Virus record (IMG/VR): IMGVR_UViG_3300036826_000261
Coordinates: 8,693 to 72,692 of that record
Length of the DNA stretch: 64,000 nt
From: a virus
Strand: one strand, 5' to 3'
In this document: positions 2,233 to 56,488 of the stretch, piece after piece
Numbering within the stretch: position 1 is the stretch's first letter
Layout of the letters: each line of letters opens with the position of its first letter
Notes under the pieces: model-generated
Databases searched by the model: none
The model's input: only the letters and a program-made list of their open reading frames with translations
What the model was told of the DNA's origin: nothing
Made by a program: the position numbers and the translations under genes

Positions 2233-2301
2233 AACGCAACGGCTGGAGCACTTGCAATGCTCCAGCCGTCACTTGACCTAGCAACCTGTCTGGAGGCTGC
2301 C
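2233..2301 (+). promoter_or_regulatory. structured leader of homing endonuclease gene (copy 1)
   Basis: 12-bp stem ACGGCTGGAGCA/TGCTCCAGCCGT, then GCAACCT..AGGCTGC stem overlapping the GGAGG RBS; near-identical copy at 36315-36385. Confidence 0.7.
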
Positions 2302-2838
2302 ATGCCCAAAGCTTTGGATATCACAAATCGACGTTTCGGACGACTCATCGCCCGCAAGATAGCGGGTCATGTGCGCGGGAACGGAGGCCAAAGTTATATC
2401 GTTTGGTTATGCGATTGCGATTGCGGCAATCGAACCAAAGTAACTACAGCCAATCTTAGACAGCCGGGCGGCACAAAGTCCTGTGGTTGTTATTGGCTGG
2501 ACCTTCAAGGGTCTCGTAATCTTCGTCACGGTCAAACCCGCAATGGAAAAATTAGCGGTGTGTACAACAGTTGGGCCGGCATGATCTAACGTTGTACTAA
2601 TCCCAATTCTCAAGTTTGGAAATACTACGGTGGGCGCGGCATCAAGGTTCACAAGCCTTGGTTTCGTTTCGAAGCTTTCTACGCGTACGTTGGCGATAAG
2701 CCAAAAGGCAAGACGCTAGACCGCTACCCGAATCAAAACGGCGATTACAAACCGGGCAATGTTCGCTGGGCTACGCCAGCAGAGCAGGCCAATAATCGAC
2801 GTCTTCGAAAAAGAGGTTACAGGAGAAAATTCAAATGA
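2302..2838 (+). pseudogene. HNH-type homing endonuclease with in-frame premature stop
   Basis: WLCDCDCGN..TKSCGC N-terminus; TAA at 2587-2589; the same frame continues RCTNPN..YYGGRGI..TLDRYPNQNGDYKPGNVRWAT to TGA 2838. Confidence 0.85.
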
Positions 2839-21796: not shown

Positions 21797-22225
21797 ATGT
21801 CGATAGCTGACGCTACCGAAAACGCTATTCTCTTGCTGATTTTCAACGCTACCACCTGGGCGAACTACGCCAACAATGCTTCGACGTCGCCGGAGACCAA
21901 CATCATTTGCGCGTTGCACACCGCAGACCCCGGTGACGCCGGCGCGCAGAATACGTCCGAGATCGGCTATTCGTCCTATGCGCGGGTCAACGTCGCGCGC
22001 ACCTCGGGCGGCTGGACGGTGACCGCCAACAGCGTCAGTCCGGTCGCCGCGATCAACTTCCCGGCCGGCACCGGCGGCTCCGGCACTGCATCGTTCTTCT
22101 CGACCGGCAAGTCCGGCGGCGGCGCTTCGCCGATTTTGTGGAGCGGTACAGTAACACCTAATATCGTGTGCGGCAGCGGTGTCACGCCGAGCCTCTCGAC
22201 GGCGACGACGATCACGCTTGACTAG
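21797..22225 (+). CDS. small tail/fibre-associated structural protein
   Basis: ENAILLLIFN..ALHTADPGDAG....E..Y.SYARV pattern common in phage tail regions. Confidence 0.7.
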   Translation: MSIADATENAILLLIFNATTWANYANNASTSPETNIICALHTADPGDAGAQNTSEIGYSSYARVNVARTSGGWTVTANSVSPVAAINFPAGTGGSGTASFFSTGKSGGGASPILWSGTVTPNIVCGSGVTPSLSTATTITLD

Positions 22226-22320: not shown

Positions 22321-22425
22321 GTGATGCCGTCATTTGCGACGGCGATCACCTTGAGCCAAGCCTGCCAATACCCTGCTTGGCCTCGCCGGGGGCACGCCGT
22401 GACACGTCCCGCCAAACCATGCCTA
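22321..22425 (-). ncRNA. stand-alone GGY-NN guide-like RNA (mini-array 1) with terminal hairpin
   Basis: Minus strand TAGGCAT GGTTT GGCGG GACGT GTCAC GGCGT.. GGCA GGCTT; same start motif as the main array; hairpin 22321-22349. Confidence 0.75.
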
Positions 22426-22434
22426 AGAGCTTTG

Positions 22435-22463
22435 CAGCTAGGTGTGCTCAGCAGCCCTGTCAA
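22435..22463 (-). promoter_or_regulatory. sigma70-like promoter for mini-array 1
   Basis: TTGACA-N17-TAGCTG on the minus strand, about 9 nt before TAGGCATGG. Confidence 0.65.
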
Positions 22464-23233: not shown

Positions 23234-26200
23234 ATGGCTACTTATGTTTTTGTTGTCAGTGGCACGACGACCGGCGCACCGCCCGGTGATTATCAGGCCA
23301 CGGGCTCGACCTGGGACGTTATCGGCGGTGGTGGTTCGGGCGCAGTTGCCAGTGGTGGCGTGCAGCCGAATGCTGGTGGCGGTGGTGGTTGGTCGCAGAT
23401 CGTCAACGTCGCGTGGTCGTCGGCGCAGACCGTGCAAATCGGTCAAGGCGGCGCGGCGAAATCGACCACCAACACGGCCGGCGCGGCGGGCACCGCGACA
23501 TGGGCACGCATCGACGGTGGCGGCACCGCGCCTGCGACGACCGCGCAAGGCGTCTTAGCCAATCCCGGCAGTGGCGGCCTCGTCGGCAGCGGGACTGGCA
23601 CGGCCGGCGGTTCGGTCACCGGCGCAGTTGGCACCACGACGCGCGCGGGCGGCAATGCCGGCGCTGAAAATGATACATCGTACGCCGGTCCCGGCGCTGG
23701 CGGCGCAGCCGGTCCGGGCGGCGCGGGCGGCACGGGTGGCGCTGATTCGCAGAACGGTCCGTACGGCGGCTCAGCTGGCGGCGGCGCCAATGGCGGCGGC
23801 GGTGCAGGCGGCGCCACCACGGGCGGGCAAGTTGGCACCCAAGGCGGTGCGTCGATCTCGACCGGCAATCAGACCGGCGCATCGGGCGGCACCACCAATA
23901 CGGCGCCGACAGCCGCGAACGCGGGCAGCAATGGATCAGGCGGCGGCGGTGGCTCTGGTAGTACTTCGTCGGGCACGGCAGCCGGGCGCGGTGGCGACGG
24001 CGGCGCCGGCAAGGAATACGATTCGTCGCACGGCTCCGGCGGTGGCGGCGGATCGGGTGGCGGCAACACCGCAGGCGGCACCAACGGTCAAGGCGGCACC
24101 GGTGGTCTGTACGGCGGTGGTGGCGGCGCATCGGGCTCCGGCAGTTCGGGTCTCGGCACTTCCGGCGCAGGCGCGCAGGGTCTGCTCGCGATCACCTACA
24201 CGCCGAGCGGCGGGGCGCCGACGTGGGCCTTTGTCGGCGTCACAAGTGTCGTATCAGTTACAGCAGCAACGCACACGCTGAGCGAACCCGCAGGTGTGCA
24301 GCAGGGCGACTTGCTCGTTGCTGTGATTTCATCGCGTATTGCTTCCACGACATCGATCACCTTGCCATCTGGCTGGTCGCTGGTCGCTGAGGCAAAGAAC
24401 AATAACACGCTCACGACGTCGAGTGCCGCAGCATCCGGCATGATGGCGTACTGCGTGCGGGGCGCCTCGGCGCCAAGCTTTACTTTTACGCACCCGACTG
24501 CACCCAGTGTTGCGCTAGGCTATGTCGTTGCTTATCGCAACAACGATCCGAGCCCTTTGGACGTCCATACGGCTTGGACCACAGCGACGAACACGACAGC
24601 TGTTTCCGGCGCAGGCGTCACTACGGGTTTTGCTTCAGACCTGATCGTGGTTGGCACCTGTGGCGGTCAGGAGGCGACGTGGACAGCGTTGTCTGCGGCA
24701 ACCGATCCGTCCGGGGCTAGCGGCACTGGTGGCCAGACCGGAAACCCGGTGACGGGGTCTTGGCTGGAGCGCGCTGAAAACACTACTACGACCGGCGCCG
24801 ACACGTCGTTGGGAATCTTCGATGCGGTACGCGGCACGGCCGGCGCGACTGGCAATATATCGGTCACAGCCGGGACGGCTGCGGCGCATGTGCTCGTCAT
24901 TGGCGCCTTCAAGCTTGCGCCGCCCGCTGGCAATAACGGCGCGGCGGCGGGCACTGGTACTGCGAGCGCGGTCGGCACCGGGCTCAAGATCGCGCAGGGT
25001 GCCGCAGCGGGCACATCTACCGCGAGCGCGACCGGCAGTGGTGCGGGCAGCGGCCAAGGCGTCGCGAGCGGCACCGGTGCAGCGAGCGCGGTCGGCATCG
25101 GGCTCAAGATTGCGCAGGGTGCTGCAGCGGGCACATCTACCGCGAGCGCGACCGGCAGCGGCGGCGCTGTTGCTCCGGCTTTCGTGCAGCACGTTACGCC
25201 GAACGCGTTTCAAGGCGGCAGTTCTGCAAGTGCGACCGGCGCGGCGGTGGGCGTCGGCAATTGCGTCGTCGGCGCGGTGTCGTGGCAGCGCGCCGACACG
25301 CTCGATCTCACGTCGGTCACCGACGACAAGGGCAACACTTACACGATCGTGGATCGTGGAGGCGATCCAGGTAACGCACAGACTCACGTCACTTTCATTC
25401 TCTGGAATATCACCAACGGCCCTTCGACGATCACGGCGAACTTCAGCCAGTCTGAAGGCATCAACGACATCGTCTGGGATGAATATTCGGGAGTTCTGAC
25501 TACCGATCCGCGCGATGGTCACGCGATCAATCTGCAAAGTCCCGCCAGCAACACCACCGATGCGGCGACGTCGGGCAGCATTACGACCACCGTCGCCAAC
25601 GATCTGATCTGGTCGTCGATCGTTGATTGCCAAGGCTCCAGTCAGAACGGCTACGCGGCGGGCACCGGCTACACCAAGCGCGGCACGTTCTGGCTTTCTG
25701 GTTACGGCGCGACCGAAGACAAGACCCTGGCCACGCCGGGCAGTGTCGCCGGCACGTGGACGCTGACCACTTCGTCGGTTGTTGCGGTTGCGGTGATCGC
25801 GCTGAAGCCGGCTTTGCCGGCTGGTGCCGGCAGCGGTGCGGCTGCGGGCACCGGCGCCGCCAACGGCGTCGGACAATCGACGGCGGTGGCTGCCGGGTCG
25901 GCCGCCGGCACTTCGACCGCGAGCGCGACCGGCAGCGGAGCGAGCAACAGCACGGGGTCGAGCGCAGGCACCGGCGCAGCGAGCGGCGTCGGGCGCAGCA
26001 CATTCCTCGCCACGGCAGTCGCGACCGGCACGGGCGCGGCCTCGGCGACCGGGACTGCGGCAGCGGCCGGCACAGGCAATGCGTCGGGCGCGGGTGCAGC
26101 GTCCGCCACCGGGGCCGCCACGGTGGTGGCGACCGGCAGCACCGCCGGCACCAGCAGCGCGCAGGCGCAAGCCGCCGGGCAGGGCGCGACGTCCGGAACC

Positions 26201-27958
26201 GGCACGGCAACGGGCATTGGGCGGGCCACAGCCGCCGCTACAGCGGCGTCCGCCGCGACCGGCACCGCGACAGCCGCCGGCACCGGGATCGTCTCAGCGC
26301 CCGGCGCCGCTGCGGGAACAGGCGCTGCAGCGGCCACCGGGGCGGCGCTGTTCAGCGCCACCGGCAGCGCGGCGGGAACCGGTATTGCGCTGGGGGTGGC
26401 GCCGAGCCTTGGCAGCGCCACCGGCATCGGTGCGGCCAGCGCGGTCGGACAATCGACAGCGGCGGCGGTCGGCAGCGCGACGGCGACCGGCACCGCCACG
26501 GCGACCGGTACCGGCATCATCTTTTCGCCTGGGGCGGCGGCCGGCACCGGCGCGGCCAACGCCACCGGATCGGGCGTCGGCGTCACACAAGGCGCTGCCG
26601 CCGGCACCGGCGCGGCGTCCGGGGTCGGACAGTCTACAGCGGTTGCGACCGGATCGGCGGCGGGCGTCGGGGTCGCGTCAGGGGTCGGGCTCGCCAGTGC
26701 GCAGGGCGCTGCCGCCGGCCTCGGCGCGGCGTCCGGGATCGGGCGATCGACGGCGCTGGCGACCGGCAACGCGGCCGGCACAGGCACCGCGTCTGGAATT
26801 CAGCAAGGCACCTCGATCGCGGTTGCCGCCGGCACCGGGTCGGCACAGGCGCAAGCCGCTGGGCAAGGTGCCGCTGCCGGTCTCGGCGCGGCCAGCGCGA
26901 CCGGCCAAGCGACGGCGCGCAGCCCGGGCAATGCCGCCGGTACCGGCGCGGCACAGGCGCGAGCCGCCGGGCAAGGGGCGACGTCCGGCGTTGGAACGGC
27001 TTCTGGCATCGGCGCCAGCCTCGCCAGTGCGGTCGGCGCAGCGGCCGGCACTGGCACAGCGGCGGCGCAATCGTTGCAGGGTGGGCTCGGCAGCGCCGCC
27101 GGCACCGGTGTGGCGAGCGGCATCGGGCGATCGACGGCGGCAGCCGTCGGCAGTGCGGCTGGTCTCGGGTCGGCGGCGGCGGTCGCCAGCAGCCTGTCGA
27201 TTGGCGCGGCCACCGGCACCGGCGTGGCTTCGGCGGTTGGCGTCGGGGCGAGCAATTCGGTCGGCGCATCTGCCGGAGTCGGCAGCGCGGCGGCGCAATC
27301 GCTGCAGGGCACGGTCGGCGTTGCCGCCGGCACCGGGACGGCCACTGGCGCCGGGGCGGCGTTGGTTCGGCAGCCGGGCAGCGCGGCCGGGATCGGCGCA
27401 GCCAACGCGGTCGGCACCGGCATCTTTGTCGCGGTCGGGTTTAGCTCCGGTCTCGGCGGCGACACCGGCGAGGCGACGGCGCTGGCGTCGGCGCAAGGCC
27501 ATGCCGTCGGCACCAGCACGGCGACGGCGCCGGGCAGCGGGTTCGAGATCGGCGACGGCAGCGCCGCCGGTCACGGCGTCGCGACCGGTGTCGCCAAATC
27601 GGTCAATGCCGGCGTCGGCGCGGCGGCCGGGCTCGGCACGCTGCAGGCGGTGGCGCGGGTTATCGGTGCAGGCGTCGCGCAGGAAGCGTCCGATGTCGCC
27701 AATGGCGTCGCTTATTGGGTGCCGGAAGGCACCGCGCAGGAAGCGCCCGACACCGCGCACGGCACCAGCGGCAAGCGCTTCAGCGAGGATTTCATTGCCG
27801 AGATCGCGCCGCCGCCGGAGCTGGCGGGCGAGATCGAACCGACACCGGCGTTCACCGGGCGCAAGCGCTCGGCCGATCTGGTGGCGCAACTGTCCGCCGC
27901 GTCCGCGTTCACTGGGCGCACGCGCAACAGCCAAGATTTTATCGGACGCATGCCATGA
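23234..27958 (+). CDS. large Gly/Ala-rich virion fibre/decoration protein
   Basis: Polyglycine-rich N-terminus, two beta-rich modules, then more than 600 aa of GAAAGxGxA repeats. Confidence 0.8.
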   Translation: MATYVFVVSGTTTGAPPGDYQATGSTWDVIGGGGSGAVASGGVQPNAGGGGGWSQIVNVAWSSAQTVQIGQGGAAKSTTNTAGAAGTATWARIDGGGTAPATTAQGVLANPGSGGLVGSGTGTAGGSVTGAVGTTTRAGGNAGAENDTSYAGPGAGGAAGPGGAGGTGGADSQNGPYGGSAGGGANGGGGAGGATTGGQVGTQGGASISTGNQTGASGGTTNTAPTAANAGSNGSGGGGGSGSTSSGTAAGRGGDGGAGKEYDSSHGSGGGGGSGGGNTAGGTNGQGGTGGLYGGGGGASGSGSSGLGTSGAGAQGLLAITYTPSGGAPTWAFVGVTSVVSVTAATHTLSEPAGVQQGDLLVAVISSRIASTTSITLPSGWSLVAEAKNNNTLTTSSAAASGMMAYCVRGASAPSFTFTHPTAPSVALGYVVAYRNNDPSPLDVHTAWTTATNTTAVSGAGVTTGFASDLIVVGTCGGQEATWTALSAATDPSGASGTGGQTGNPVTGSWLERAENTTTTGADTSLGIFDAVRGTAGATGNISVTAGTAAAHVLVIGAFKLAPPAGNNGAAAGTGTASAVGTGLKIAQGAAAGTSTASATGSGAGSGQGVASGTGAASAVGIGLKIAQGAAAGTSTASATGSGGAVAPAFVQHVTPNAFQGGSSASATGAAVGVGNCVVGAVSWQRADTLDLTSVTDDKGNTYTIVDRGGDPGNAQTHVTFILWNITNGPSTITANFSQSEGINDIVWDEYSGVLTTDPRDGHAINLQSPASNTTDAATSGSITTTVANDLIWSSIVDCQGSSQNGYAAGTGYTKRGTFWLSGYGATEDKTLATPGSVAGTWTLTTSSVVAVAVIALKPALPAGAGSGAAAGTGAANGVGQSTAVAAGSAAGTSTASATGSGASNSTGSSAGTGAASGVGRSTFLATAVATGTGAASATGTAAAAGTGNASGAGAASATGAATVVATGSTAGTSSAQAQAAGQGATSGTGTATGIGRATAAATAASAATGTATAAGTGIVSAPGAAAGTGAAAATGAALFSATGSAAGTGIALGVAPSLGSATGIGAASAVGQSTAAAVGSATATGTATATGTGIIFSPGAAAGTGAANATGSGVGVTQGAAAGTGAASGVGQSTAVATGSAAGVGVASGVGLASAQGAAAGLGAASGIGRSTALATGNAAGTGTASGIQQGTSIAVAAGTGSAQAQAAGQGAAAGLGAASATGQATARSPGNAAGTGAAQARAAGQGATSGVGTASGIGASLASAVGAAAGTGTAAAQSLQGGLGSAAGTGVASGIGRSTAAAVGSAAGLGSAAAVASSLSIGAATGTGVASAVGVGASNSVGASAGVGSAAAQSLQGTVGVAAGTGTATGAGAALVRQPGSAAGIGAANAVGTGIFVAVGFSSGLGGDTGEATALASAQGHAVGTSTATAPGSGFEIGDGSAAGHGVATGVAKSVNAGVGAAAGLGTLQAVARVIGAGVAQEASDVANGVAYWVPEGTAQEAPDTAHGTSGKRFSEDFIAEIAPPPELAGEIEPTPAFTGRKRSADLVAQLSAASAFTGRTRNSQDFIGRMP

Positions 27959-28377: not shown

Positions 28378-28748
28378 CCGTCAGCTATATCGCGGCGCTG
28401 AAGACCACGCGGATGCAGGCGGTGATCAACGCGATCGATGCCGGCACGGCGGGCACGCTGGAGATGGGCACCGCCGGTATGGGCACGGTGCTGGTGACGT
28501 TCAGCCTGAACAAGCCGTCGTTCTCGCTGTCGGGCGACACCATCACGATGATCGGCGCGCCGAAATTCGCTGCCGCCAGCGCCACCGGCACGGCCGCCAA
28601 TGCGCGGATCAGGAGCAGCACCGGCAGCGTCATCGTGTCGGGTTTGACGATCGACACCGCTGGCGCCGACATCAACTTGAACGACACCAACATCGTGGCC
28701 GGCCAGAACGTCACGCTGTCGAGTTTCTCGATTACGCATGCACCATAG
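28374..28748 (+). CDS. small structural protein
   Basis: A.ATGTAANARI...G......GADINL..TNIVAGQNVT pattern. Confidence 0.6.
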   Translation: MTVSYIAALKTTRMQAVINAIDAGTAGTLEMGTAGMGTVLVTFSLNKPSFSLSGDTITMIGAPKFAAASATGTAANARIRSSTGSVIVSGLTIDTAGADINLNDTNIVAGQNVTLSSFSITHAP

Positions 28749-28757
28749 GGAGAGCAC

Positions 28758-29183
28758 ATGAATAAGCCCGAACGCGAAGGCTTTGTGAAAGACGAACCGG
28801 TCGAGATGAAGGACGTCACGCCGCAACATGACACTGAACTGGATTTGCCGCAGGACGCGCCGGAATGGCCGCTGACGATCAAGCTGCTGCACAAGCCGAT
28901 CCAGAAATCGCGCACCGAGATGCTGCACGAGATCACGTTTCGCGAGCCGAATACGCTCGACATCGTCCGCTGCGGCGGCAACCCGTGTCGGATCGAAATC
29001 GCCGATGTCGGCGGCAGTCGCGCGGTGTTCAACGCCGTGATCGACGACCGCAAGATGATGACGCTGATGGCCAATCTGTCCGGGCTGCTGGAGCCGCAGA
29101 TTCAGAAGATGGACCCGCGAGACTATAACAGTTGCGCTTATCGGTTGCGCAGCTTTTTTCTCCCGGAGCAAGGTCTCTTCTAG
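28758..29183 (+). CDS. tail assembly chaperone
   Basis: IKL..PI......EITFREP...DI; L..M...D; ends RSFFL; upstream of the tape measure gene. Confidence 0.8.
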   Translation: MNKPEREGFVKDEPVEMKDVTPQHDTELDLPQDAPEWPLTIKLLHKPIQKSRTEMLHEITFREPNTLDIVRCGGNPCRIEIADVGGSRAVFNAVIDDRKMMTLMANLSGLLEPQIQKMDPRDYNSCAYRLRSFFLPEQGLF

Positions 29184-29371
29184 AAGGCGGCCTTGCTCCG
29201 AATCCGGAGGAAATGATTATCAACGCTTATCGGTTGGCGGATCGTTACAAACAAGACCCGATGACGTTTTTGCAGCAACCGTTGTCGCAAATAAACATGC
29301 ACGTTTACTACACGCTCAAACTGATCGAGTTGCAGAACGCGGCACGGGCGCGTGAGAATGAAGACGAGTGA
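29153..29371 (+). CDS. -1 frameshift extension of tail chaperone (gpGT/gpE'-like)
   Basis: C TTT TTT at 29153-29159; -1 frame open to 29371; alternative own ATG at 29213 with GGAGG. Confidence 0.6.
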   Translation, partial: LFSPGARSLLEGGLAPNPEEMIINAYRLADRYKQDPMTFLQQPLSQINMHVYYTLKLIELQNAARARENEDE

Positions 29372-29562
29372 AAAGCATGAAGGGTGACCCGTTCCCAGAT
29401 CACCCTTCACTTGTGCCGACCATGACGAGACCGGCCCGGCCAGACGGCGCCAAGGCCAAACCCCGACAAACCACGCCTGCCAAGTCTGGCTTTGCTTGGC
29501 CAAATCTTACCGCGCCAGACCTTGTCGCGCCGAACCGCGCCTGTCCTCGCCTGCCATGCCTA
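29372..29562 (-). ncRNA. stand-alone GGY-NN guide-like RNA (mini-array 2) with terminator
   Basis: Minus strand TAGGCAT GGCA, 14 pentamers, GGCA, then a second unit; stem TGAAGGGTGA/TCACCCTTCA followed by TGCTTTT. Confidence 0.8.
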
Positions 29563-29572
29563 AGAATTGGTG

Positions 29573-29601
29573 TAGGTAGTTTATTTGTTTGCGACTGTCA
29601 A
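29573..29601 (-). promoter_or_regulatory. sigma70-like promoter for mini-array 2
   Basis: TTGACA-N17-TACCTA on the minus strand, about 10 nt before TAGGCATGG. Confidence 0.65.
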
Positions 29602-29618
29602 GTTCGGGAATCGTTGTA

Positions 29619-32114
29619 ATGGCGACTGAACAAGAGCAACTGGAACTTGTCGTCACGCTTGATGATCAAGAAGCGCTGGCGAAGCTTGCCAATCTGAAAA
29701 ATCAACTGGCCAACATGGGGTCAGGGTCTTCGGGGTTTGGCAAGGTCGGTGAGAGTGTCGAGCGTGCAACCAAAGGCGTCAAGGATTTAAGCTTCGAGAT
29801 CGCCAAGGGCACGTTCTGGGGCAACATGTTTGCCGAGGCAGGCAAGGAAGTTCTCAAGTTCGGCGAAAAAGTTGTCGAGAGCGCGACGGACATCCAAGGG
29901 TTATCGAAATCGATCGTCGATCTTTCGACGACCGCTTCGCGCATGGGAACAAGTTTAGGTCAACTGCGCTCCAATCTGCGCGTGTTCGATGAAATGGGAG
30001 TCGATGCCGGCAAGGCCACTGCGACATTGCAGGGTTTGGCCGATTCGATGGGCGATCTGCAAACGATTAACGGTCGGCTGCGCGGTCAATTGCGCAGTGG
30101 CGGATTTCTCGAACTACAGGAGATGCTGAAGGTTCTGCAAGACGCTGACGAGGCGAAGACGGTCGAAGAGTTCGGCGAGACCATGCGCAAGGCCGCCGAG
30201 AAGGTGCGGGAGCGTTGGACCGATCTCGCCGGTCCTGAAAAAGGCGCAGAGATGCAGCGGCGGTTTCTGGCGTTGCTCAAGGCGCCGGAGCTGGATCAGC
30301 TCGAAGGCAAACTCGGCAAAATAAACAAACAACAAGATGAGTTTTCCAAAAGACAGGAAACCATTCTGAAGCAATTCTACGCGGCTAGTCGCGGTATGGC
30401 GGAAGGTCTTGAGCGCATCGGGCAAGCGATCGGCACGGTGGTTGCAGCGATGAATTTGCCGTGGATGCAGACATTGGCCGACACGTTCAAAGCTGGTGCG
30501 GAATACGCCGAACGCATTGCGCTGGCGCTGACCAAGTTGAATGTCACACCAACAGAGGCAAAAAGCGCGATCCAAGACACGTTCGGCAAGTTTGGTCTAG
30601 GTGTGCCGGCGCCGAGTTTCAACGAGCGTTTCGGGACATGGCCCGGTGCGACCGCGGCGCCGATGAAATTCATCGGCGGCAGTGTGCAGGGCGGTGAGTG
30701 GGACAGCCGCAATTTCACGGCCAGCGGCAACGATTTTTGGCGCAATCTGCAGGGTCGCGGCGACGTCGATATCGAAGACCGGCGCAATCTCGAAGATAAC
30801 ACCGATCAGACCAAACAGCTCACTGAGCAGATGCGCCAGCTCAATGATGCATTGACCAATCCGATGGCGACGGGACGTGGCGGCGGCTTGGCTGCGATGG
30901 GCGCAGCGCTCGGTCTCGGCGATCTCGGCGGTGGCGGTGGCGGCGGCGGTGGCGGCGGCGGCGGCGGTCGTGCGCGACCGTGGGCGCTACGCAGTCCGAG
31001 TGATGCGCCTTACGGCAATGATGCTGGACCCGGCACCGGCAAGGGTGCCGGTGAATCCCCTGCGGCCATGGGTGCCCCACCGGGTCCCGGCGGTCCTGGT
31101 GGCATTACGGCGCCGGCCGGGACGCCGATCATGCGCGGCGGCACTACAACGGTGACGACGGCGAGCGGGCACAAGTTTCAGGTTGCTGCCGCCTACGCGA
31201 AAAATTTCCAGGGCTTCATCAACGATTACGAAGCGGCTGGCGGTGTCATCGGTCCCAATTCCGGCACGCTTGGCAGTCGGCCGAGCAATGCATCTGGACA
31301 TCCGATCGGTACGGCGTTCGATCTCAATCAAGTCGCGCGCAACGTTCGCAAGGGTGGCGTATCGCTGCCGCAGGAGCAAGAGGAAGCGCTGGCGAAAAAA
31401 TGGGGTCTTGTCTCGGGCAGCCAGTGGCGCAATCCCGATGCCGGACATTTCGGCATTCGCAGCGCCAAGGCAGCGCGCGACGCGTTGATCGCCAATGGCG
31501 TGCCGGAGGGTGAAGCCAACAAGATCGTCGGCGGTGCCGCCAGCGGCGGGGCGGTCGGCGGCAGTGCCGGTGATGCCGCCAAGGTTAGGGGCTCATGGTT
31601 CGGCAACGCACCGGGTTGGCATGACCCATCCGAGCCGGTGGATAGTCCGAAGAGCAATCGGCCCGGCATTGCGTTGCCGTCCAAAGCGACGCTTGGTCAG
31701 ATGTTCGAGGTGACGACGCCGGACGGTCGCAAATTTATGTTGCCGCAAACCGATGTCGGACCGGCAGCGCGCACCGGGCGCGGCGTTGATATCACGGCGG
31801 CAGCGGCGGCGAGGATGGGTTATACCGCGAAGAATTTTCCGACCGATGAACGCTTCATGGTGCAGCCGGCGTCCAAAAGCATGGACGCAGCGATTGCCCG
31901 TGGCGCGGAGCTGGATAAGGAGCGCGAAACGACGGTGACCGGCAAAGGCCATTTGAAAGTCGATATCAATGGCCCACCCGGCACGCGAGCGAGCGCGACG
32001 GGCGAAGGGCTGCTGAAAGACACCTCGATTTCGCGTGCGACGCAGATGGCGCCGGCCAGCTCCGGGCCGACCAATCCGGCCGGCGACACGCCGTACGTGT
32101 TCGGCGGGACTTAA
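29619..32114 (+). CDS. tape measure protein with M15-like peptidase and DPBB/RlpA-like domains
   Basis: Helical N-terminal half; SGHPIGTAFD..KWGL..G..W..PDAGHF; GSWFG..IALP..DVGP..GRGVDIT. Confidence 0.8.
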   Translation: MATEQEQLELVVTLDDQEALAKLANLKNQLANMGSGSSGFGKVGESVERATKGVKDLSFEIAKGTFWGNMFAEAGKEVLKFGEKVVESATDIQGLSKSIVDLSTTASRMGTSLGQLRSNLRVFDEMGVDAGKATATLQGLADSMGDLQTINGRLRGQLRSGGFLELQEMLKVLQDADEAKTVEEFGETMRKAAEKVRERWTDLAGPEKGAEMQRRFLALLKAPELDQLEGKLGKINKQQDEFSKRQETILKQFYAASRGMAEGLERIGQAIGTVVAAMNLPWMQTLADTFKAGAEYAERIALALTKLNVTPTEAKSAIQDTFGKFGLGVPAPSFNERFGTWPGATAAPMKFIGGSVQGGEWDSRNFTASGNDFWRNLQGRGDVDIEDRRNLEDNTDQTKQLTEQMRQLNDALTNPMATGRGGGLAAMGAALGLGDLGGGGGGGGGGGGGGRARPWALRSPSDAPYGNDAGPGTGKGAGESPAAMGAPPGPGGPGGITAPAGTPIMRGGTTTVTTASGHKFQVAAAYAKNFQGFINDYEAAGGVIGPNSGTLGSRPSNASGHPIGTAFDLNQVARNVRKGGVSLPQEQEEALAKKWGLVSGSQWRNPDAGHFGIRSAKAARDALIANGVPEGEANKIVGGAASGGAVGGSAGDAAKVRGSWFGNAPGWHDPSEPVDSPKSNRPGIALPSKATLGQMFEVTTPDGRKFMLPQTDVGPAARTGRGVDITAAAAARMGYTAKNFPTDERFMVQPASKSMDAAIARGAELDKERETTVTGKGHLKVDINGPPGTRASATGEGLLKDTSISRATQMAPASSGPTNPAGDTPYVFGGT

Positions 32115-36385: not shown

Positions 36386-37006
36386 ATGCCCAAAGTTCTG
36401 TCTAGCACAAACCAACGCAAGAAGCAGTGTGCGGCTGCATCTCGTCGATATAGAGCCAAGCATAAGCAGAAACACGCTGCGCTGAACCTTGTCAGTTACT
36501 ACCGATTAAAATCTGATCCTGAGTGGTTAGCGAAACGTCGCGCTAAGGCGACGATAAACGCACGAAAATGGCGTGCCGCAAACCCTGAAAAATGTCGAGC
36601 AGCACAGCGTCGATATCGCAATAAAGATAACAACCGAGAAAAAATAAACCAACGAACTAAACGATGGTTAGCAGCCAATCCAGACCAACTTTTGAAACGT
36701 CGTGCGCAGTCCTTAGCTTGGGCGAAAGCCAATCTAGGTTTGCATCGTAAATACAAACTAGGCATCACGCCAGAACAGTTTGGTGCAATGCTAGAATCTC
36801 AACAGCATAGATGTTTGGTTTGTCGGATCGATTTGCGAACACTGCGCGGGAAAAACGTTCATCTTGATCATTGCCATAGCACAAACCGTGTTCGAGGAAT
36901 TTTGTGCCACGGATGCAATACAGCTCTTGGTTTCATGAAAGAGAATGCCGCTAATTTGAGGGCGCTAGCGGACTACATAGAAGGGTTCTCGACATGTCGT
37001 GTCTGA
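36386..37006 (+). CDS. endonuclease VII-domain homing endonuclease
   Basis: Q..RCLVC...HLDHCH.TNRVRGILCHGCN.ALG; basic N-terminus; AT-rich. Confidence 0.9.
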   Translation: MPKVLSSTNQRKKQCAAASRRYRAKHKQKHAALNLVSYYRLKSDPEWLAKRRAKATINARKWRAANPEKCRAAQRRYRNKDNNREKINQRTKRWLAANPDQLLKRRAQSLAWAKANLGLHRKYKLGITPEQFGAMLESQQHRCLVCRIDLRTLRGKNVHLDHCHSTNRVRGILCHGCNTALGFMKENAANLRALADYIEGFSTCRV

Positions 37007-51751: not shown

Positions 51752-52486
51752 ATGGCGACCATGTCGAAAAAGGCAATCATCACCTGGGAGACCGACGACG
51801 GCAGCGGGCCGCCGGTCGGCATCTGGCCGGAGCCGGGCTATCCGGCGCACCCGATTGCGCCGGGCGGACCGCCGCCGGGCGTGTGGCCGGGACCGGGCTA
51901 TCCGGCGCACCCGATCGTGATTCCGCCGGACAAGCCCGGTGAGCCGCCGACCGTGATCTGGCCGGGGCCGGGCTATCCGGCGCATCCGATCGCGCCGGGC
52001 GGACCACCGCCGGGTTATTGGGGTGGCGTGGCGCCGCCGTTGCCGACACATCCGATCGCACCGGGTGGACCGCCGCCGGGCATCTGGCCGGGGCCGGGCG
52101 TGCCGACGCCGCCGATCCATTATCCGCCGATCATCTGGCCGCAGCCGCCGGAGGGCGGACCGCCGATCGCGATCGATCCGGGACATCCCGAACATCCGAT
52201 CGTAATTCCGACACCGCCCGGCACGGTGTGGCCGCCGGATGCATCTATCGAGCATCCGATCGTGCTGCCGCTGCCGCCGGAAATCTGGCCGAAGCCGGGG
52301 GTGCCGACGCATCCGATCGTGATTCCGCCGGAGCAGCCACCGGAGAAGCCGCAACTGATCACGTGGTATGCCGGCTGGTCGGACAAGACCGGTTGGGTCG
52401 TGGTCGGCGTGCCGAACGTGCCGCATCCGACGCCGTCGAAGGCCGGCGGACCGGGCGGACCGGGCGGGCCGAAGAAAGGGCCATGA
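51752..52486 (+). CDS. proline-rich repeat protein
   Basis: Repeats of WPGPGYPAHPI(A/V); AAGGAG RBS. Confidence 0.75.
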   Translation: MATMSKKAIITWETDDGSGPPVGIWPEPGYPAHPIAPGGPPPGVWPGPGYPAHPIVIPPDKPGEPPTVIWPGPGYPAHPIAPGGPPPGYWGGVAPPLPTHPIAPGGPPPGIWPGPGVPTPPIHYPPIIWPQPPEGGPPIAIDPGHPEHPIVIPTPPGTVWPPDASIEHPIVLPLPPEIWPKPGVPTHPIVIPPEQPPEKPQLITWYAGWSDKTGWVVVGVPNVPHPTPSKAGGPGGPGGPKKGP

Positions 52487-52670: not shown

Positions 52671-53549
52671 ATGGCGAAAAAGGCACCCGTCAGTGAAATC
52701 ATCGAAATCCAAGCTATCGAAATGGCGTCGCTGGATTTCCATGTGGTCGGCACCAGCCCGTTCATCATGCATCGCTTCAGTCAGAAGGCGTGGCAGGAAT
52801 TGCTGCTGCCGTCGATCCGCGAAAACCGCGCTAGTCTCGAACAGAAGCTCAAGCATGATCCGTATGCAGAATTTCGTGGCGCGTTCTATCGCAACAGCAA
52901 TCCGCGCGCCAAGACGGCGTACCATATTCCAAACGGCGCGTTTCACGGCGCGATCGCCAGCGCCGCGCTCGACATGCCGGGTGCCAAGAAGGCGCAGATC
53001 GAGCGGTTGACCAAGATCACCAGCGTCAACATCGAACTGTATGGCATCCCGAAAATCTTTTGCAGCATGGTGCGTAACAGCGACATCTCGCGCACGCCAG
53101 ATGTGCGCACCCGGCCGATCTTCCCGCGCTGGGCGTGCACGGTTTCGGTGCGCTACGCGAAGAACGCGTTGACGGCCAAAGCCGTCGCCAATCTGTTCGG
53201 CGCGGCGGGCGAGATCATCGGCATCGGTGATTGGCGCGGTCAGAAGGGCGGACCGTTCGGCGCGTTCCGCACCAACGTGTCGGTGAACGATAAAGAGTTC
53301 AAGAGCATCTTGAAGGAAGGCCGCGTCGCGCAATTGAAAGCTTACGACAAACCGTTGTTCTACGATGAAGACACGGAAGAAATTTTAACGTGGTTCGCCA
53401 CCGAGGTGCGCCGCCGTGAGTTGGAAGGCAAGATGCGCAGCGATAACGTCAAGGAGTTTCGCGTTATCACCGAGCGCGGCAAGGAGCGCGGCAACGGCGA
53501 GTTGGTGAGCCTTGACGACAAGCGGCGGACCCGTCGAAAGGCCGCGTGA
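52671..53549 (+). CDS. stand-alone Cas7/RAMP-like RNA-binding protein (Vipr-like effector)
   Basis: VVGTSPFIMH first strand, IP..AF..AI..A, R.RP.FP.W, and C-terminal Gly-rich loop GIGDWR..KGGPFGAF typical of RAMP-fold proteins; no other cas genes in the window. Confidence 0.75.
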   Translation: MAKKAPVSEIIEIQAIEMASLDFHVVGTSPFIMHRFSQKAWQELLLPSIRENRASLEQKLKHDPYAEFRGAFYRNSNPRAKTAYHIPNGAFHGAIASAALDMPGAKKAQIERLTKITSVNIELYGIPKIFCSMVRNSDISRTPDVRTRPIFPRWACTVSVRYAKNALTAKAVANLFGAAGEIIGIGDWRGQKGGPFGAFRTNVSVNDKEFKSILKEGRVAQLKAYDKPLFYDEDTEEILTWFATEVRRRELEGKMRSDNVKEFRVITERGKERGNGELVSLDDKRRTRRKAA

Positions 53550-54043
53550 TGGCGAAAGCCACCAAACACGACCGCATCAAAGCGGCGTTGGAAGCGATCA
53601 GGCGCTCGCATCGCGGGCGCTTGACGGCGCGGGCCGTGGTCGAGGCGGCCAAAAATCCTAGGCACCCGTTGCACAGTGAATTTGAATGGAACAACCAGAA
53701 AGCAGCGGATCAGCAACGCTTGGAGCGTGCGCGCGAACTAATCAGATACGTCACGGTCGTGGTCGTTGATGCAACGCGTAAAGTCGAAACACGATTTTAT
53801 GCGCACGATCCGCGAACGCCGCATCGTGAAGGCTATGTCAGCATCTTGGAGATGAACCGCCGCGATGCTGAACAAGATGTGGTCAACGCTATCGCGATCT
53901 GTCAATCGACGATCGATCGCGCGCTCAGCAAAGCGGAATTTCTCAGCGCGAAGCATCGTGGTGTTTCACGATTGTTGAAAAATGCAGTTGCTACCCTTGC
54001 CGCCGCGCATGATCTGCTCGAAGGCTCGGCGGCAGCGGCGTGA
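53549..54043 (+). CDS. accessory protein coupled to the RAMP-like gene
   Basis: LT..AVVEAA..P.HPLH..FEW....AA...RL..AR.LIR motif; start overlaps the RAMP stop. Confidence 0.7.
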   Translation: MAKATKHDRIKAALEAIRRSHRGRLTARAVVEAAKNPRHPLHSEFEWNNQKAADQQRLERARELIRYVTVVVVDATRKVETRFYAHDPRTPHREGYVSILEMNRRDAEQDVVNAIAICQSTIDRALSKAEFLSAKHRGVSRLLKNAVATLAAAHDLLEGSAAAA

Positions 54044-54048
54044 AGTCA

Positions 54049-54269
54049 TAGGCATGGCAGGCTAGGCAAGGTGCGGCCCGGCCGGAGTAGGTTCGGTGCG
54101 GCAAGGCAGGCATGGCCCGGGAGACGCGGTGAAGCGTGTCCGTGATCTGGTAGCGTCGGGTAAGGCGGCGTTGGATGGGGTGAGGCGAGGCAGGCTTGGT
54201 CAGGTCTGACGAGACTGGGCGCGGTAGGTTTTGGCGCGGTACGGCAAGGCGTGATGCGGTAAGGCAGGC
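54049..54269 (+). ncRNA. GGY-NN pentamer array, block 1 (3 units)
   Basis: Starts TAGGCATGGCA; GGCA separators at 54056, 54105, 54189, 54263 (spacings 49/84/74 = 5n+4). Confidence 0.85.
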
Positions 54270-54527
54270 ATGGCCAGAAACACAGCGGATAAGGTTCTCG
54301 AAAACAAGTTGCGGCTGATCGCCAAACGGCGGGGTTTGTTTCTTTCGAAATCCCGTCGTCGCGATCCGTTTGCGCTCGACTTTGGTTATGAGTTGAGAGA
54401 CGCGCAACAGCACGTCATCGAAACAGCGTGCAGTCTTACTCGAATCGAAAACTTGTTAGCTCTCGGTCGGACGGGGCGGAAACGTTTAACAGTCGAAGGA
54501 TGGCGTCACATCATCCTTGGTAAGTAG
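54270..54527 (+). CDS. small basic protein embedded in the array
   Basis: ENKLRLIAKRRGL.L.KSRRRDP.ALDFGY; non-repetitive, lower-GC insert. Confidence 0.65.
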   Translation: MARNTADKVLENKLRLIAKRRGLFLSKSRRRDPFALDFGYELRDAQQHVIETACSLTRIENLLALGRTGRKRLTVEGWRHIILGK

Positions 54528-56488
54528 GCATGGCAGGCGTGGCCGGGCCGGGTTGTCCCCGGTGTGGCAGAGCATGGCAGCGCAGGGTTGACATGGCAGG
54601 GCAGGCAGGGTCCGTCGTGGTCGCGCGGGATTGGGCGGGGCAAGGCACGGCACGATGCTGGTCTGGCGAGGCGTGGCAGGCATGGCTGGATCAGGCGTGA
54701 CGAAGCTTGGTGTAGCTAGGCCGGGTGCAGTGTAGGCATGGCGAGGCAGGCGCGGCGGGACAAGGTCCGATATGGCGTGGCGCGGTCTGGTTCGGTCTGG
54801 CCGGGTTTGGCAGGCAAGGTGCGTCGAGGCCAAACATGGTGTGACAAGGTACGGCGCGGCCTGATCTGGGCTCGACTGGGCAGGCGCGGTGGGTTCTGGC
54901 TCGACATGGTTAGGCGAGGCCCGGTGATGCCCGGCATGTTGAAGTGCGTCCTGGCAGGCGTGGCGGGGGTGCGTGCGAGGCGGGACCGGGCAAGGTCGGG
55001 CACGTTATATGGTCTGGCTGGGCACGGCTTGGCGGGTCACGGCAAGGCACGGCCGGCAAGGTTTGTCCGGAACCGGTTTGGCTTGGCGAGATGCGATTAG
55101 GCGAGGCGAAGCGAGGCCGGCTAAGCGTGACTTGGTCGGGTAGACGTGGCCGGGCACGGTAGCGGCGTGGATCGGCCGGCGACGCTAGGCTTGTCGTCGA
55201 TCGGCATGACATGGCGCGGCACGGCGAGGCGTGGTTCGGCCGGCGCGATTAGGTGTGGTCGGAATCGGCATGGCTCGGTGTCGCGTGGTCTGGCGTGGCT
55301 CGGCTGGGCCGGCTGGCGGGATTTGGCTTGATGCGGTCAGGCAAGGTCCGGCCCGGATCGGCGCGGCATGGCCGGCGTGGTCTGGCTTGAAGTGGTTGGG
55401 ATTAGGCGTGGCGCGGTATGACGCGGTGAGGCAGGCGGGGAGTGGCTAGACGTGGCTGCGCGCAACAAGGTCGGTCAAGTCCTGGTTTAGGCGTGGTGTG
55501 ACGCTGTGAGGCAGGCAAGGCCCGGACGGGCAAGACCGGATTAGGCATGGCGATGCTGGGCCGGCGGGGCACGGTGGAGGCCCGGACGGGCACGGCCGGG
55601 CAAGGCGTGGCAATGCAAGGCAGGCAAGACTTGGCAGGGCGCGGCCCGGCGAGAAATGGTTTGGCGCGGCGCGGCAGGCATGGCAGGGCGATACATGGTC
55701 AGGCGAAGCACGGCACAGCAGGGCAGGCGGGACTGGGTGTTCTGGGCACGGCTGGGCACGGCCGAAGCATGGCCGGCGAGGCTTGTCCTGGCACGGCGGG
55801 GCTGAGGCGTGGCAGCGTTTAGGCGCGGCCGGCGAGGCTTGTCCTGATTCGGCGGGGCTCGGCTTAGGCGCGGCCGGGTCGGTCACGGCAAGGCAGGCAC
55901 GGCTAGGCGTGGCAGGGAGCGGCAACGCCGGGTCGGGCGTGGCTGGGCTAGGCGACGGCGAGGCGAGGCGTGGTGCGGCAGGCGCGGCATGACAAGGCGC
56001 TGTGAGACCCGGCTTGGCAGGGTGCGGTACGGCATGGCTCGGCAGCGCTAGGCTTGGCAGGCACAGGTGATGCGGCGCGCGACAAGGCGGGACAGGGCGA
56101 GGCCGGCGCGGCATGAAAAGGCGCGGCGCGTTCGGGTGCAGCGCGGCGGGGTTGCGGCAAGGCACGGCTCGGCAGGACCGGCGGGGCTGGGCGTGTCTGG
56201 GCACGGCTCGGCGCGGCACGGCACGGTCCGGCAACGCCGGCAGCGCTGGGCGAGACATGGCATGGCTTGGCGGGGCTGGACACGGTGAGGCGAGGCAGGC
56301 GCGATCTGGCGTGGTTTGGCGTGGCGGGGCGAGGTACGAGCTGGGCGAGGCGAGGCAGGCGTGGTCGGGCGCAACGCGATGTGGTGTGACTGGTCGCGGC
56401 TCGCTGCGGTACGGCCCGGCAGGCGGGACTGGGCGTTGCTGGATCAGGTTCGGCCCGGCATGGCTAGGCGTGGCAGGCGGCGCAGGCG
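54525..56488 (+). ncRNA. GGY-NN pentamer array, block 2 (about 30 units)
   Basis: Continuous 5-nt periodicity of GG(C/T)NN with GGCA/GGCC tetramer separators about every 45-85 nt; only low-complexity spurious ORFs. Confidence 0.9.

Follow-up and report, generated by a model that had tools for sequence, protein, structure and literature searches.

A solo vrRNA cassette beside its own near-cognate tape-measure gene in a phage encoding Vipr

VIPR (Viral Interference Programmable Repeat) employs a RAMP protein, Vipr, that coats vrRNAs composed of GGY/NN pentamers, the NN dinucleotides of which read double-stranded DNA with every third base being skipped, an arrangement termed the '1-nt skip' in the text of the preprint describing it (10.64898/2026.04.26.720920). 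As presented in the main texts of that preprint and its companion, natural targets are mostly coding sequences, such that the skipped base corresponds to the wobble position, and competing mobile elements are silenced at the transcriptional level, with Escherichia phage SUSP1 and a Pseudomonas fulva prophage serving as type II exemplars (10.64898/2026.04.26.720920; 10.64898/2026.04.26.720927). The main text of a later preprint by Lopez et al. presents 'solo' vrRNAs, defined by the contig containing no Vipr or the nearest being more than 20 kb away, in elements lacking vipr, namely, F5 satellites and VIPR-null SUSP1-like phages (10.64898/2026.10.15.759431); SUSP1 satellites are also described there as carrying tape-measure genes. 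Here, a 64 kb stretch (hereafter, the window) of the 72.7 kb virus record IMGVR_UViG_3300036826_000261 was considered, this being a phage record of 98% completeness according to CheckV, the identical sequence of which is present in soil metagenome runs. On the minus strand of the window, a solo cassette containing a 14-pentamer guide (guide A) is inserted between the tail chaperone and tape-measure genes, antisense to both, and is divergent from the adjacent tape-measure gene and nearly matches its 5' end. The guide is probably directed against rival tape-measure alleles, with the cassette being linked to a self allele that would be immune.

The vipr open reading frame (ORF) of the phage (Table 1) is that of a Vipr protein. 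When a profile of 22 family members was used, PDB entry 36pp_D ('SUSP1 Vipr protein') came first at E = 2.2e-7, ahead of a runner-up at 0.54, while the top PDB folds for an AlphaFold2 model (predicted local distance difference test score 73) were all Csm3/Cas7-type RAMP subunits, eight of these at E <= 1e-3. The family numbers 436 proteins at E <= 1e-5. As the phage has a Vipr protein, 'guide' is an apt term for a run of pentamers. The decoding proposed in a preliminary description of the sequence, whereby the NN of each pentamer corresponds to codon positions 1 and 2, is none other than the published 1-nt skip code.

The system resembles published VIPR in relying on a SUSP1-related RAMP protein, in being carried by a phage and in using guides of 9-16 GGY/NN pentamers. 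Likewise, two of every three target bases are read in alignment with codon positions 1 and 2, the apparent targets are genes of competing elements and there is no own-genome match of at least 80% NN. Unlike the exemplars, the Vipr protein is far diverged, with some 47 residues aligning by sequence profile, and the scaffolds are looser, being RRY in 85% and strict GGY in 70% of the units of a 2.4 kb main array of about 33 guides. Moreover, guides are bounded by 4-nucleotide (nt) GGCA/GGCC units, with no pseudoknot tail, and the vap-like gene is without a recognizable family, since no Pfam, NCBIfam or nuclease family was matched and the Atlas returned viral hypothetical proteins alone. There are 36 such 4-nt slips in the main array, mostly GGCA or GGCC, with GGCA being commonest (19/36); this grammar is probably that of the 'staggered arrays' of the first preprint.

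As with published solo vrRNAs, the cassette lies more than 20 kb from vipr (23.1 kb from the vipr start to the cassette end at 29601), seems to be aimed at relatives and matches self less well than a rival, which the October 2026 preprint reads as autoimmunity avoidance. The published situation differs in that here the phage retains its own vipr and vap, the cassette thus being a guide dispersed within a VIPR-positive genome. In addition, the cassettes of the phage are found in the structural operon rather than at the vipr locus, each some 100-300 nt from its own near-cognate gene, and the presumed targets are structural (tape measure, head or fibre-like protein), whereas published solos address vipr, vrRNA, a recombinase or REP elements. 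No dispersed structural-operon guide, guide beside a near-cognate gene, structural target or immunity by indel or codon switch was found in the texts of the VIPR preprints, supplements aside.

The cassette and its near-match in the tape-measure gene

The promoter TTGACA-N17-TACCTA, array-like start, 14 clean pentamers and terminator of the preliminary description were each found where they had been placed (Table 1). The TTGACA box begins 39 nt upstream of the leader, with 10 bases separating TACCTA from the latter. A scan for the sigma-70 consensus left both solo cassettes of the phage without a called promoter, the TTGACA/TACCTA pair being missed because the -10 box is without the final T. 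The leader, TAGGCATGGCA, was found at up to one mismatch in 11 copies in the window, as compared to 0.77 expected, with eight of these lying inside the 54.0-56.5 kb array; the cassette leader closes with a GGCA unit (29555-29552). Guide A presents the NN order GA CA GC TC GC AA CT GC AA TT CA AA CA TT on the scaffolds GGC GGA GGC GGT GGC GAC GGT GGC GGT GAT GGC AGC AGC GAC, of which 8/14 are strict GGY, a share inside the per-guide range of the main array (0.46-0.91), and 13/14 are RRY. The type II pseudoknot tail is absent from the cassette, with guide A instead being bounded by GGCA units, as in the main array.

Guide B, the looser run that follows, may act either as a further guide or as a spacer ahead of the terminator. 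Its best own-genome match was 16/24, i.e., null level (p=0.99), or 17/26 under a 13-unit hand parse, and no exact match was found in viral_contigs. The cassette contains no ORF. The period-5 Fourier signal in the window is confined to the cassette and the main array, while Rfam yielded 0 matches at the gathering threshold in the entire window.

The 14 NN pairs of guide A were scored at 3-nt spacing against every position of the window on both strands (approximately 128,000 positions). The best ungapped match, at +29667, comprised 8/14 NN and 21/28 informative bases, with the runner-up reaching 18/28; a score of 21 was attained by 1/200 composition-preserving shuffles of unit order. When one extra codon was allowed, 10/14 NN (23/28 bases) were matched at +29664, a value reached by 0/300 shuffles, the shuffle maximum being 9 (in eight shuffles). 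Both the codons given in the preliminary description for this site and its counts, namely, 8/12 ungapped (units 3-14) and 10/14 with one extra codon, were reproduced. The site begins 48 nt inside the gene, some 65-110 nt from the cassette promoter, and is in codon phase with the ATG at 29619, within an 844-codon frame, with the NN pairs falling on codon positions 1 and 2. Four units are mismatched, two of these being codon-family switches (guide TT as opposed to self CTG); the synonymy of the two 'synonymous Leu' mismatches noted earlier assumes that guide TT stands for TTR. Among the 32 guides of at least nine units parsed in the phage, only guide A and the first array guide presented an own-genome match beyond all 100 shuffles.

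It could be argued that a repeat of biased composition has come to resemble an Ala/Leu/Lys-rich coding region by chance. A hint of such a composition effect is offered by the second-best ungapped NN match (7/14 at 30294), which also lies in the tape-measure gene. Given the shuffling results, the location of the match at the homologous site in 11/12 relatives and the repetition of guide-gene adjacency across four cassettes, both considered below, chance is a highly improbable explanation.

The tape-measure gene itself was named by position, as it follows a Phage_TAC_7 chaperone gene and precedes baseplate-hub genes. Family support is weak (phrog_2013, 'lytic tail protein', E = 2e-4), with the relatives being ORFs of 600-960 residues.

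Table 1. Features of the solo cassettes, their near-cognate sites and the VIPR locus in the window
Feature	Position	Strand	Basis or remark
Solo cassette	29601-29372	-	promoter-like box, leader, 14-pentamer guide, second run and terminator, in order
Promoter-like box, TTGACA (29601-29596), N17, TACCTA (29578-29573)	29573..29601	-	read directly
Leader TAGGCATGGCA	29552..29562	-	11-mer common to cassette and main array
Guide A, 14 RRY-NN pentamers in one register	29482..29551	-	parsed units
Second GGCA 4-nt unit, closing guide A	29478..29481	-	parsed
Guide B, 12 more loosely formed units, one being 6 nt long	29417..29477	-	parsed; 13 units in hand parse
Intrinsic terminator, 15-pair hairpin and T-run (29410-29377)	29372..29410	-	ends one base past chaperone stop codon
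Tape-measure gene, 831 residues	29619..32114	+	named by position
Near-cognate wobble-aligned site, tape-measure codons 16-30	29664..29708	+	additional GAA codon and Leu in place of Ser, as compared to guide and relatives
Tail assembly chaperone and frameshift extension	28758..29371	+	Phage_TAC_7; slippery heptamer TTTTTTC near 29155
Sister solo cassette, guide at 22423-22368	22330..22463	-	same leader; 11-unit guide
Near-cognate site of sister guide, in gene 21797-22225	22132..22164	-	peptide of rival sites kept, with Leu TTG and Ser AGC
vipr, RAMP protein of VIPR system	52671..53549	+	profile, AlphaFold2 fold, phrog_4652
vap-like accessory gene, 165 residues	53546..54043	+	overlaps vipr stop; phrog_15946 (no assigned function)
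Main vrRNA arrays, about 400 units, 2.4 kb	54049..56480	+	begin six bases past stop of vap-like gene

Tape-measure alleles of relatives and a site lacking the cassette

Relatives of the tape-measure protein are encoded at 14 IMG/VR loci, 12 of which include the N-terminus. When the first 100 codons were considered, the best in-frame match to guide A fell at the homologous site, i.e., that following L-x-V/L-x-L-x-D, in 11 of these 12 loci, with 13-21 of 28 bases being matched. In all nine loci where the spacing could be counted (L011 and L012 could not), five residues separate the conserved D and L, as in guide A, while six are found in self (D-Q-E-A-L-A-K-L). Moreover, the guide and seven relatives (L001, L003, L004, L005, L007, L008 and L009) read Ser where self has Leu; L010 presents Thr, and L011 and L012 differ. 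With its extra residue and Leu in place of the Ser of the relatives, the self allele is thus the odd one out. In L007 and L001, the intergenic gap ahead of the tape-measure gene is absent.

A search with a degenerate 16-base guide pattern added 44 loci, of which about half are tape-measure alleles. One of these, L127, encodes a chaperone 77.5% identical to that of the phage, while its tape measure is merely 35% identical overall; the N-terminus of the latter reads ...LVVTLD-DQASAGLANLKNQL. That a related allele should match guide A better than does self, a check proposed at the outset, was borne out in the ungapped comparison, where L127 presents 10/14 NN and 23/28 bases, as opposed to 8/14 and 21/28 for self. 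At the same locus, the stop codon of the chaperone gene overlaps the ATG of the tape-measure gene, such that the 247-nt cassette is missing. This junction was read directly, as the MAFFT alignment of self and L127 misplaced the gap. When the 44 pattern-found loci and the 20 tape-measure loci found by protein (L001-L020), 64 loci in all (519 kb), were scanned, no long pentamer array or cassette was detected, with only eight chance runs of 7-8 units being seen within coding sequence.

Other collections added little. The N-terminal 160 residues of the tape measure retrieved no closer relative at E <= 1e-3 from a set of 5.8 billion proteins. Closer tape-measure relatives were found neither in genome_contigs nor, by tblastn, in GenBank phages, while metagenome_contigs, where the search was by protein alone, returned only the IMG/VR contigs again. 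The 35 records with a related Vipr contained just three tape-measure matches, all distant. In four soil DNA runs, contigs were identical over 28700-30700 and offered no variant allele, with three of the six listed runs possibly being the source of the record.

The sister cassette and the same geometry in other phages

The second solo cassette of the phage, at 22.4 kb (Table 1), provides a case in which perfect rival targets exist. Its TTGACA box (22463-22458) lies 38 nt upstream of the leader, as compared to 39 nt in the tape-measure cassette; aligning one cassette with the other in MAFFT provided no further information. The sister guide matches the antisense strand of gene 21797-22225 (Pfam Gp80, phrog_240), some 200-290 nt away, at 19/22 bases, a score reached by 0/200 shuffles. 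Perfect targets of the guide were found at 28 sites in 26 other IMG/VR contigs and nowhere in self. All are wobble-aligned and lie in homologous genes of 143-218 residues, with wobble bases varying freely and the encoded peptide being ILWSGTVTPNI at 27/28 sites and MLWSGTVTPNI at 1/28. Self differs from these sites solely by TTG in place of CTN (Leu) and AGC in place of TCN (Ser). No arrays were found in those 26 loci. The occurrence of TTAGGCATGGCA in L215 (5732-5743, minus strand) was considered as a possible cassette and rejected, as it lies on the strand of the sister-target homologue itself, just upstream of its ribosome site.

Examination of 11 further records with a related Vipr revealed distal cassettes in two, G008 and G023. 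In G008 (L118-L121; 15.7 kb, 41.0-41.35 kb), a solo sharing the TAGGCATGGCA leader is accompanied by a mini-array that diverges from a portal-like gene, with the first guide of the mini-array matching codons ~55-68 of the portal-like gene, 329 nt away, at 20/26 bases (p=0.03). This guide had no exact viral match. In G023 (L185-L188; 62.7 kb, 8.9 kb), a solo is divergent from a 321-codon frame that it matches at 22/30 bases from a distance of 138 nt (p=0.01), and the two solos share a promoter-like box of their own (CTTGCAGTT.GTGCAAAT). The solo cassettes of both phages end in GGCAGGC followed by a hairpin. Separately, the first array guide of G023 (52624, plus strand) matches 47568 (plus strand), 5 kb away, at 20/26 bases, as did 0/100 shuffles.

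For both solo cassettes of the phage considered here, the best own-genome match is significant and lies within about 120-290 nt. Across 125 parsed guides, the best own-record match fell no more than 600 nt away in nine cases, while about 1.2 were expected (0.94 computed, the remainder arithmetic). Four adjacent guide/gene pairs in three phages contain 15 mismatched units, with 7/15 being Leu/Ser/Arg codon-family switches that keep the amino acid. When the same guides were placed at all other in-frame offsets on the same genes, such switches numbered 313/26,238 (1.2%; binomial P = 2e-10). As such, the suggestion in the preliminary description that solo guides disperse as autonomous units beside the homologous locus holds for both cassettes, as well as for G008 and G023.

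Other observations concern the VIPR locus and the remainder of the window. The first array guide (54060-54104, plus strand) matches a site inside vipr (52888, minus strand) at 16/18 bases, with 0/100 shuffles doing so; vipr itself as a vrRNA target is a class already presented in the published texts. Both array blocks (54043-54059 and 54525-54535) open with TAGGCATGGCA, placed immediately at or past a stop codon, that of the vap-like gene in the first case and that of an 85-residue ORF (54270-54527), situated between the blocks and matching no family, in the second. Upstream of vipr, positions 51752-52486 (plus strand) encode a proline-rich protein of 244 residues with PGYPAHPI-like repeats; the gene is separated by some 90 nt from the longest vipr frame and by 185 nt from the vipr start used. 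In the structural region, a 1574-residue ORF (23234-27958, plus strand) yielded no Pfam or PHROG match. Finally, a Pfam Endonuclease_7 domain (E = 1.2e-19) was identified in the 206-residue product of a gene at 36386-37006 (plus strand). Upstream of this gene lies an element of some 80 nt, containing a hairpin and ribosome site, that is also found ahead of the gene at ~2302 (2257-2589, plus strand), and the two products begin with the same three residues.

Weighing the role of the guide

Several points weigh against guide A being directed at rival alleles. No perfect target was found, be it with the exact 14 units in viral_contigs or with an 11-unit degenerate pattern in viral_contigs and genome_contigs, nor did the record itself contain a target at up to three mismatches. 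The best target, that in L127, is matched at 10/14 NN (71%) and hence falls short of the ungapped 80% NN published as a minimum (10.64898/2026.04.26.720920), the one threshold passed being that of 0.8 per base in the October 2026 preprint (0.82). In the set found with the guide pattern, which by itself forces 16 matches, the unrelated ORFs L147 and L131 likewise reach 23/28; as such, that value alone is not significant and the homologous position is decisive. Once a one-codon gap is allowed, self also attains 23/28, the same as L127, and it keeps five contiguous perfect units (5-9). The -10 box of the cassette promoter is poor. As to the sister guide, its 28 targets were found with a pattern forcing CTN and TCN, and therefore prove that perfect rival targets exist but are no gauge of the rarity of TTG and AGC; a pattern-free set of homologues of its target gene came to 2/42 records, one already known, and is too small for assessing codon usage.

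The lack of a perfect target in viral_contigs or genome_contigs could also mean that the cassette is a relic, i.e., a guide in decay for which no living target exists, or else a sponge, with the RNA merely competing for Vipr. This would fit with 6/14 scaffolds deviating from strict GGY, with guide B having no target and with Vipr-redirecting solo vrRNAs having already been published. Yet guide A keeps a flawless register for 70 nt, leader and terminator are intact along with the two GGCA boundaries, and scaffold quality does not depart from that of the main array. Moreover, since the collections hold very few relatives of the phage, a missing target is weak evidence, and as about two thirds of the guides in the published surveys had hits of at least 80% NN, guide A was kept as a vrRNA despite having none. 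A relic or sponge is accordingly considered quite unlikely.

The retention of part of the match in self raises a further possibility, namely, that of self-regulation, with the vrRNA-Vipr complex on the 5' end of the phage's own tape-measure gene acting as a tunable roadblock for the late operon or for the divergent promoter of the cassette. Partial self-binding is conceivable, given the five contiguous perfect units and the six-unit footprint with which a SUSP1 guide functions, according to the published text. The position of the site just inside the gene and close to the cassette promoter is in keeping with such a role, as is the promoter-proximal divergent geometry also seen in G008 and G023. 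On the other hand, the sister guide is perfect in 26 other contigs and never in self, and the published surveys, as presented in the preprint texts, contain no self-hit of at least 80% NN. What most strongly opposes self-regulation is the extra, register-breaking codon in self alone, together with the concentration of mismatches at codon-family switches that keep the amino acid, as immunity rather than tuning predicts. Self-regulation is thus judged unlikely, and a guide against rival tape-measure alleles, linked to an immune self allele, remains the reading we hold to be likely.

What the analysis demonstrates are the sequence relations described above; that the cassette is expressed, is loaded onto Vipr and silences a gene, and which gene this is, we infer from the published mechanism along the following lines. 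The cassette would be transcribed from its own promoter, with Vipr being supplied by the operon 23 kb away. Vipr protomers would coat the RRY scaffolds of the vrRNA, as in the published mechanism, and the 14 exposed NN pairs would then read codon positions 1 and 2 in double-stranded DNA, skipping the wobble base. Guide A would spell the conserved motif D-Q-A-S-A-K-L-A-N-L-... as it would be written in the homologous tape-measure gene of a rival, be it a related phage or a satellite, and occupation of this gene's 5' end would block transcription of the rival tail operon. By contrast, the self allele would be out of register after unit 2, with further units being mismatched; because of the extra codon, the change from Ser to Leu and CTG where the guide has TT, the phage's own copy is no target by published criteria. 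As guide and immune allele are only about 100 bp apart, recombination would seldom part them, and such tight linkage would prevent the appearance of suicidal recombinants.

In T-even phages, free-standing homing endonuclease genes and the phenomenon of marker exclusion are precedents for a weapon placed beside the locus attacked in relatives, with the resident copy being resistant, while archaeal virus mini-CRISPR arrays aimed at related viruses attest to competition among close relatives. Unlike homing or marker exclusion, the cassette is without a linked nuclease (the only one seen in the window, the Endonuclease_7 gene, is 7 kb away), presumably silences rather than cleaves and would employ an RNA guide acting via a protein encoded in trans. 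More tentatively, solo vrRNA cassettes might be selfish 'guide plus immune allele' modules that insert beside the conserved coding site attacked in relatives, with carriers surviving by register-breaking indels or codon-family switches and the pair spreading among phages by exclusion or gene conversion of the sensitive allele, in what would amount to an RNA-guided analogue of intron-less homing or marker exclusion. The chaperone/tape-measure junction would then be one recurrent landing site, and Leu/Ser/Arg codon-family switches the sole synonymous way past a code blind to wobble bases.

The first descriptions of VIPR date from 2026, and the present phage is informative as to how carriers may avoid targeting themselves and arrange their guides. 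In the case considered here, a VIPR-positive phage appears to scatter single-guide transcription units across its structural operon, each adjoining the gene that would be attacked in relatives, with its own copy seemingly immunised by an indel or a Leu/Ser/Arg codon-family switch. This would provide a testable rule for distinguishing self from non-self without a protospacer-adjacent motif, and would point to a foreseeable means of escape from a code described as mutation-proof at the wobble base. A further suggestion is that guide and immunity are passed on together as a single linked module, with bearing on how guides originate and spread.

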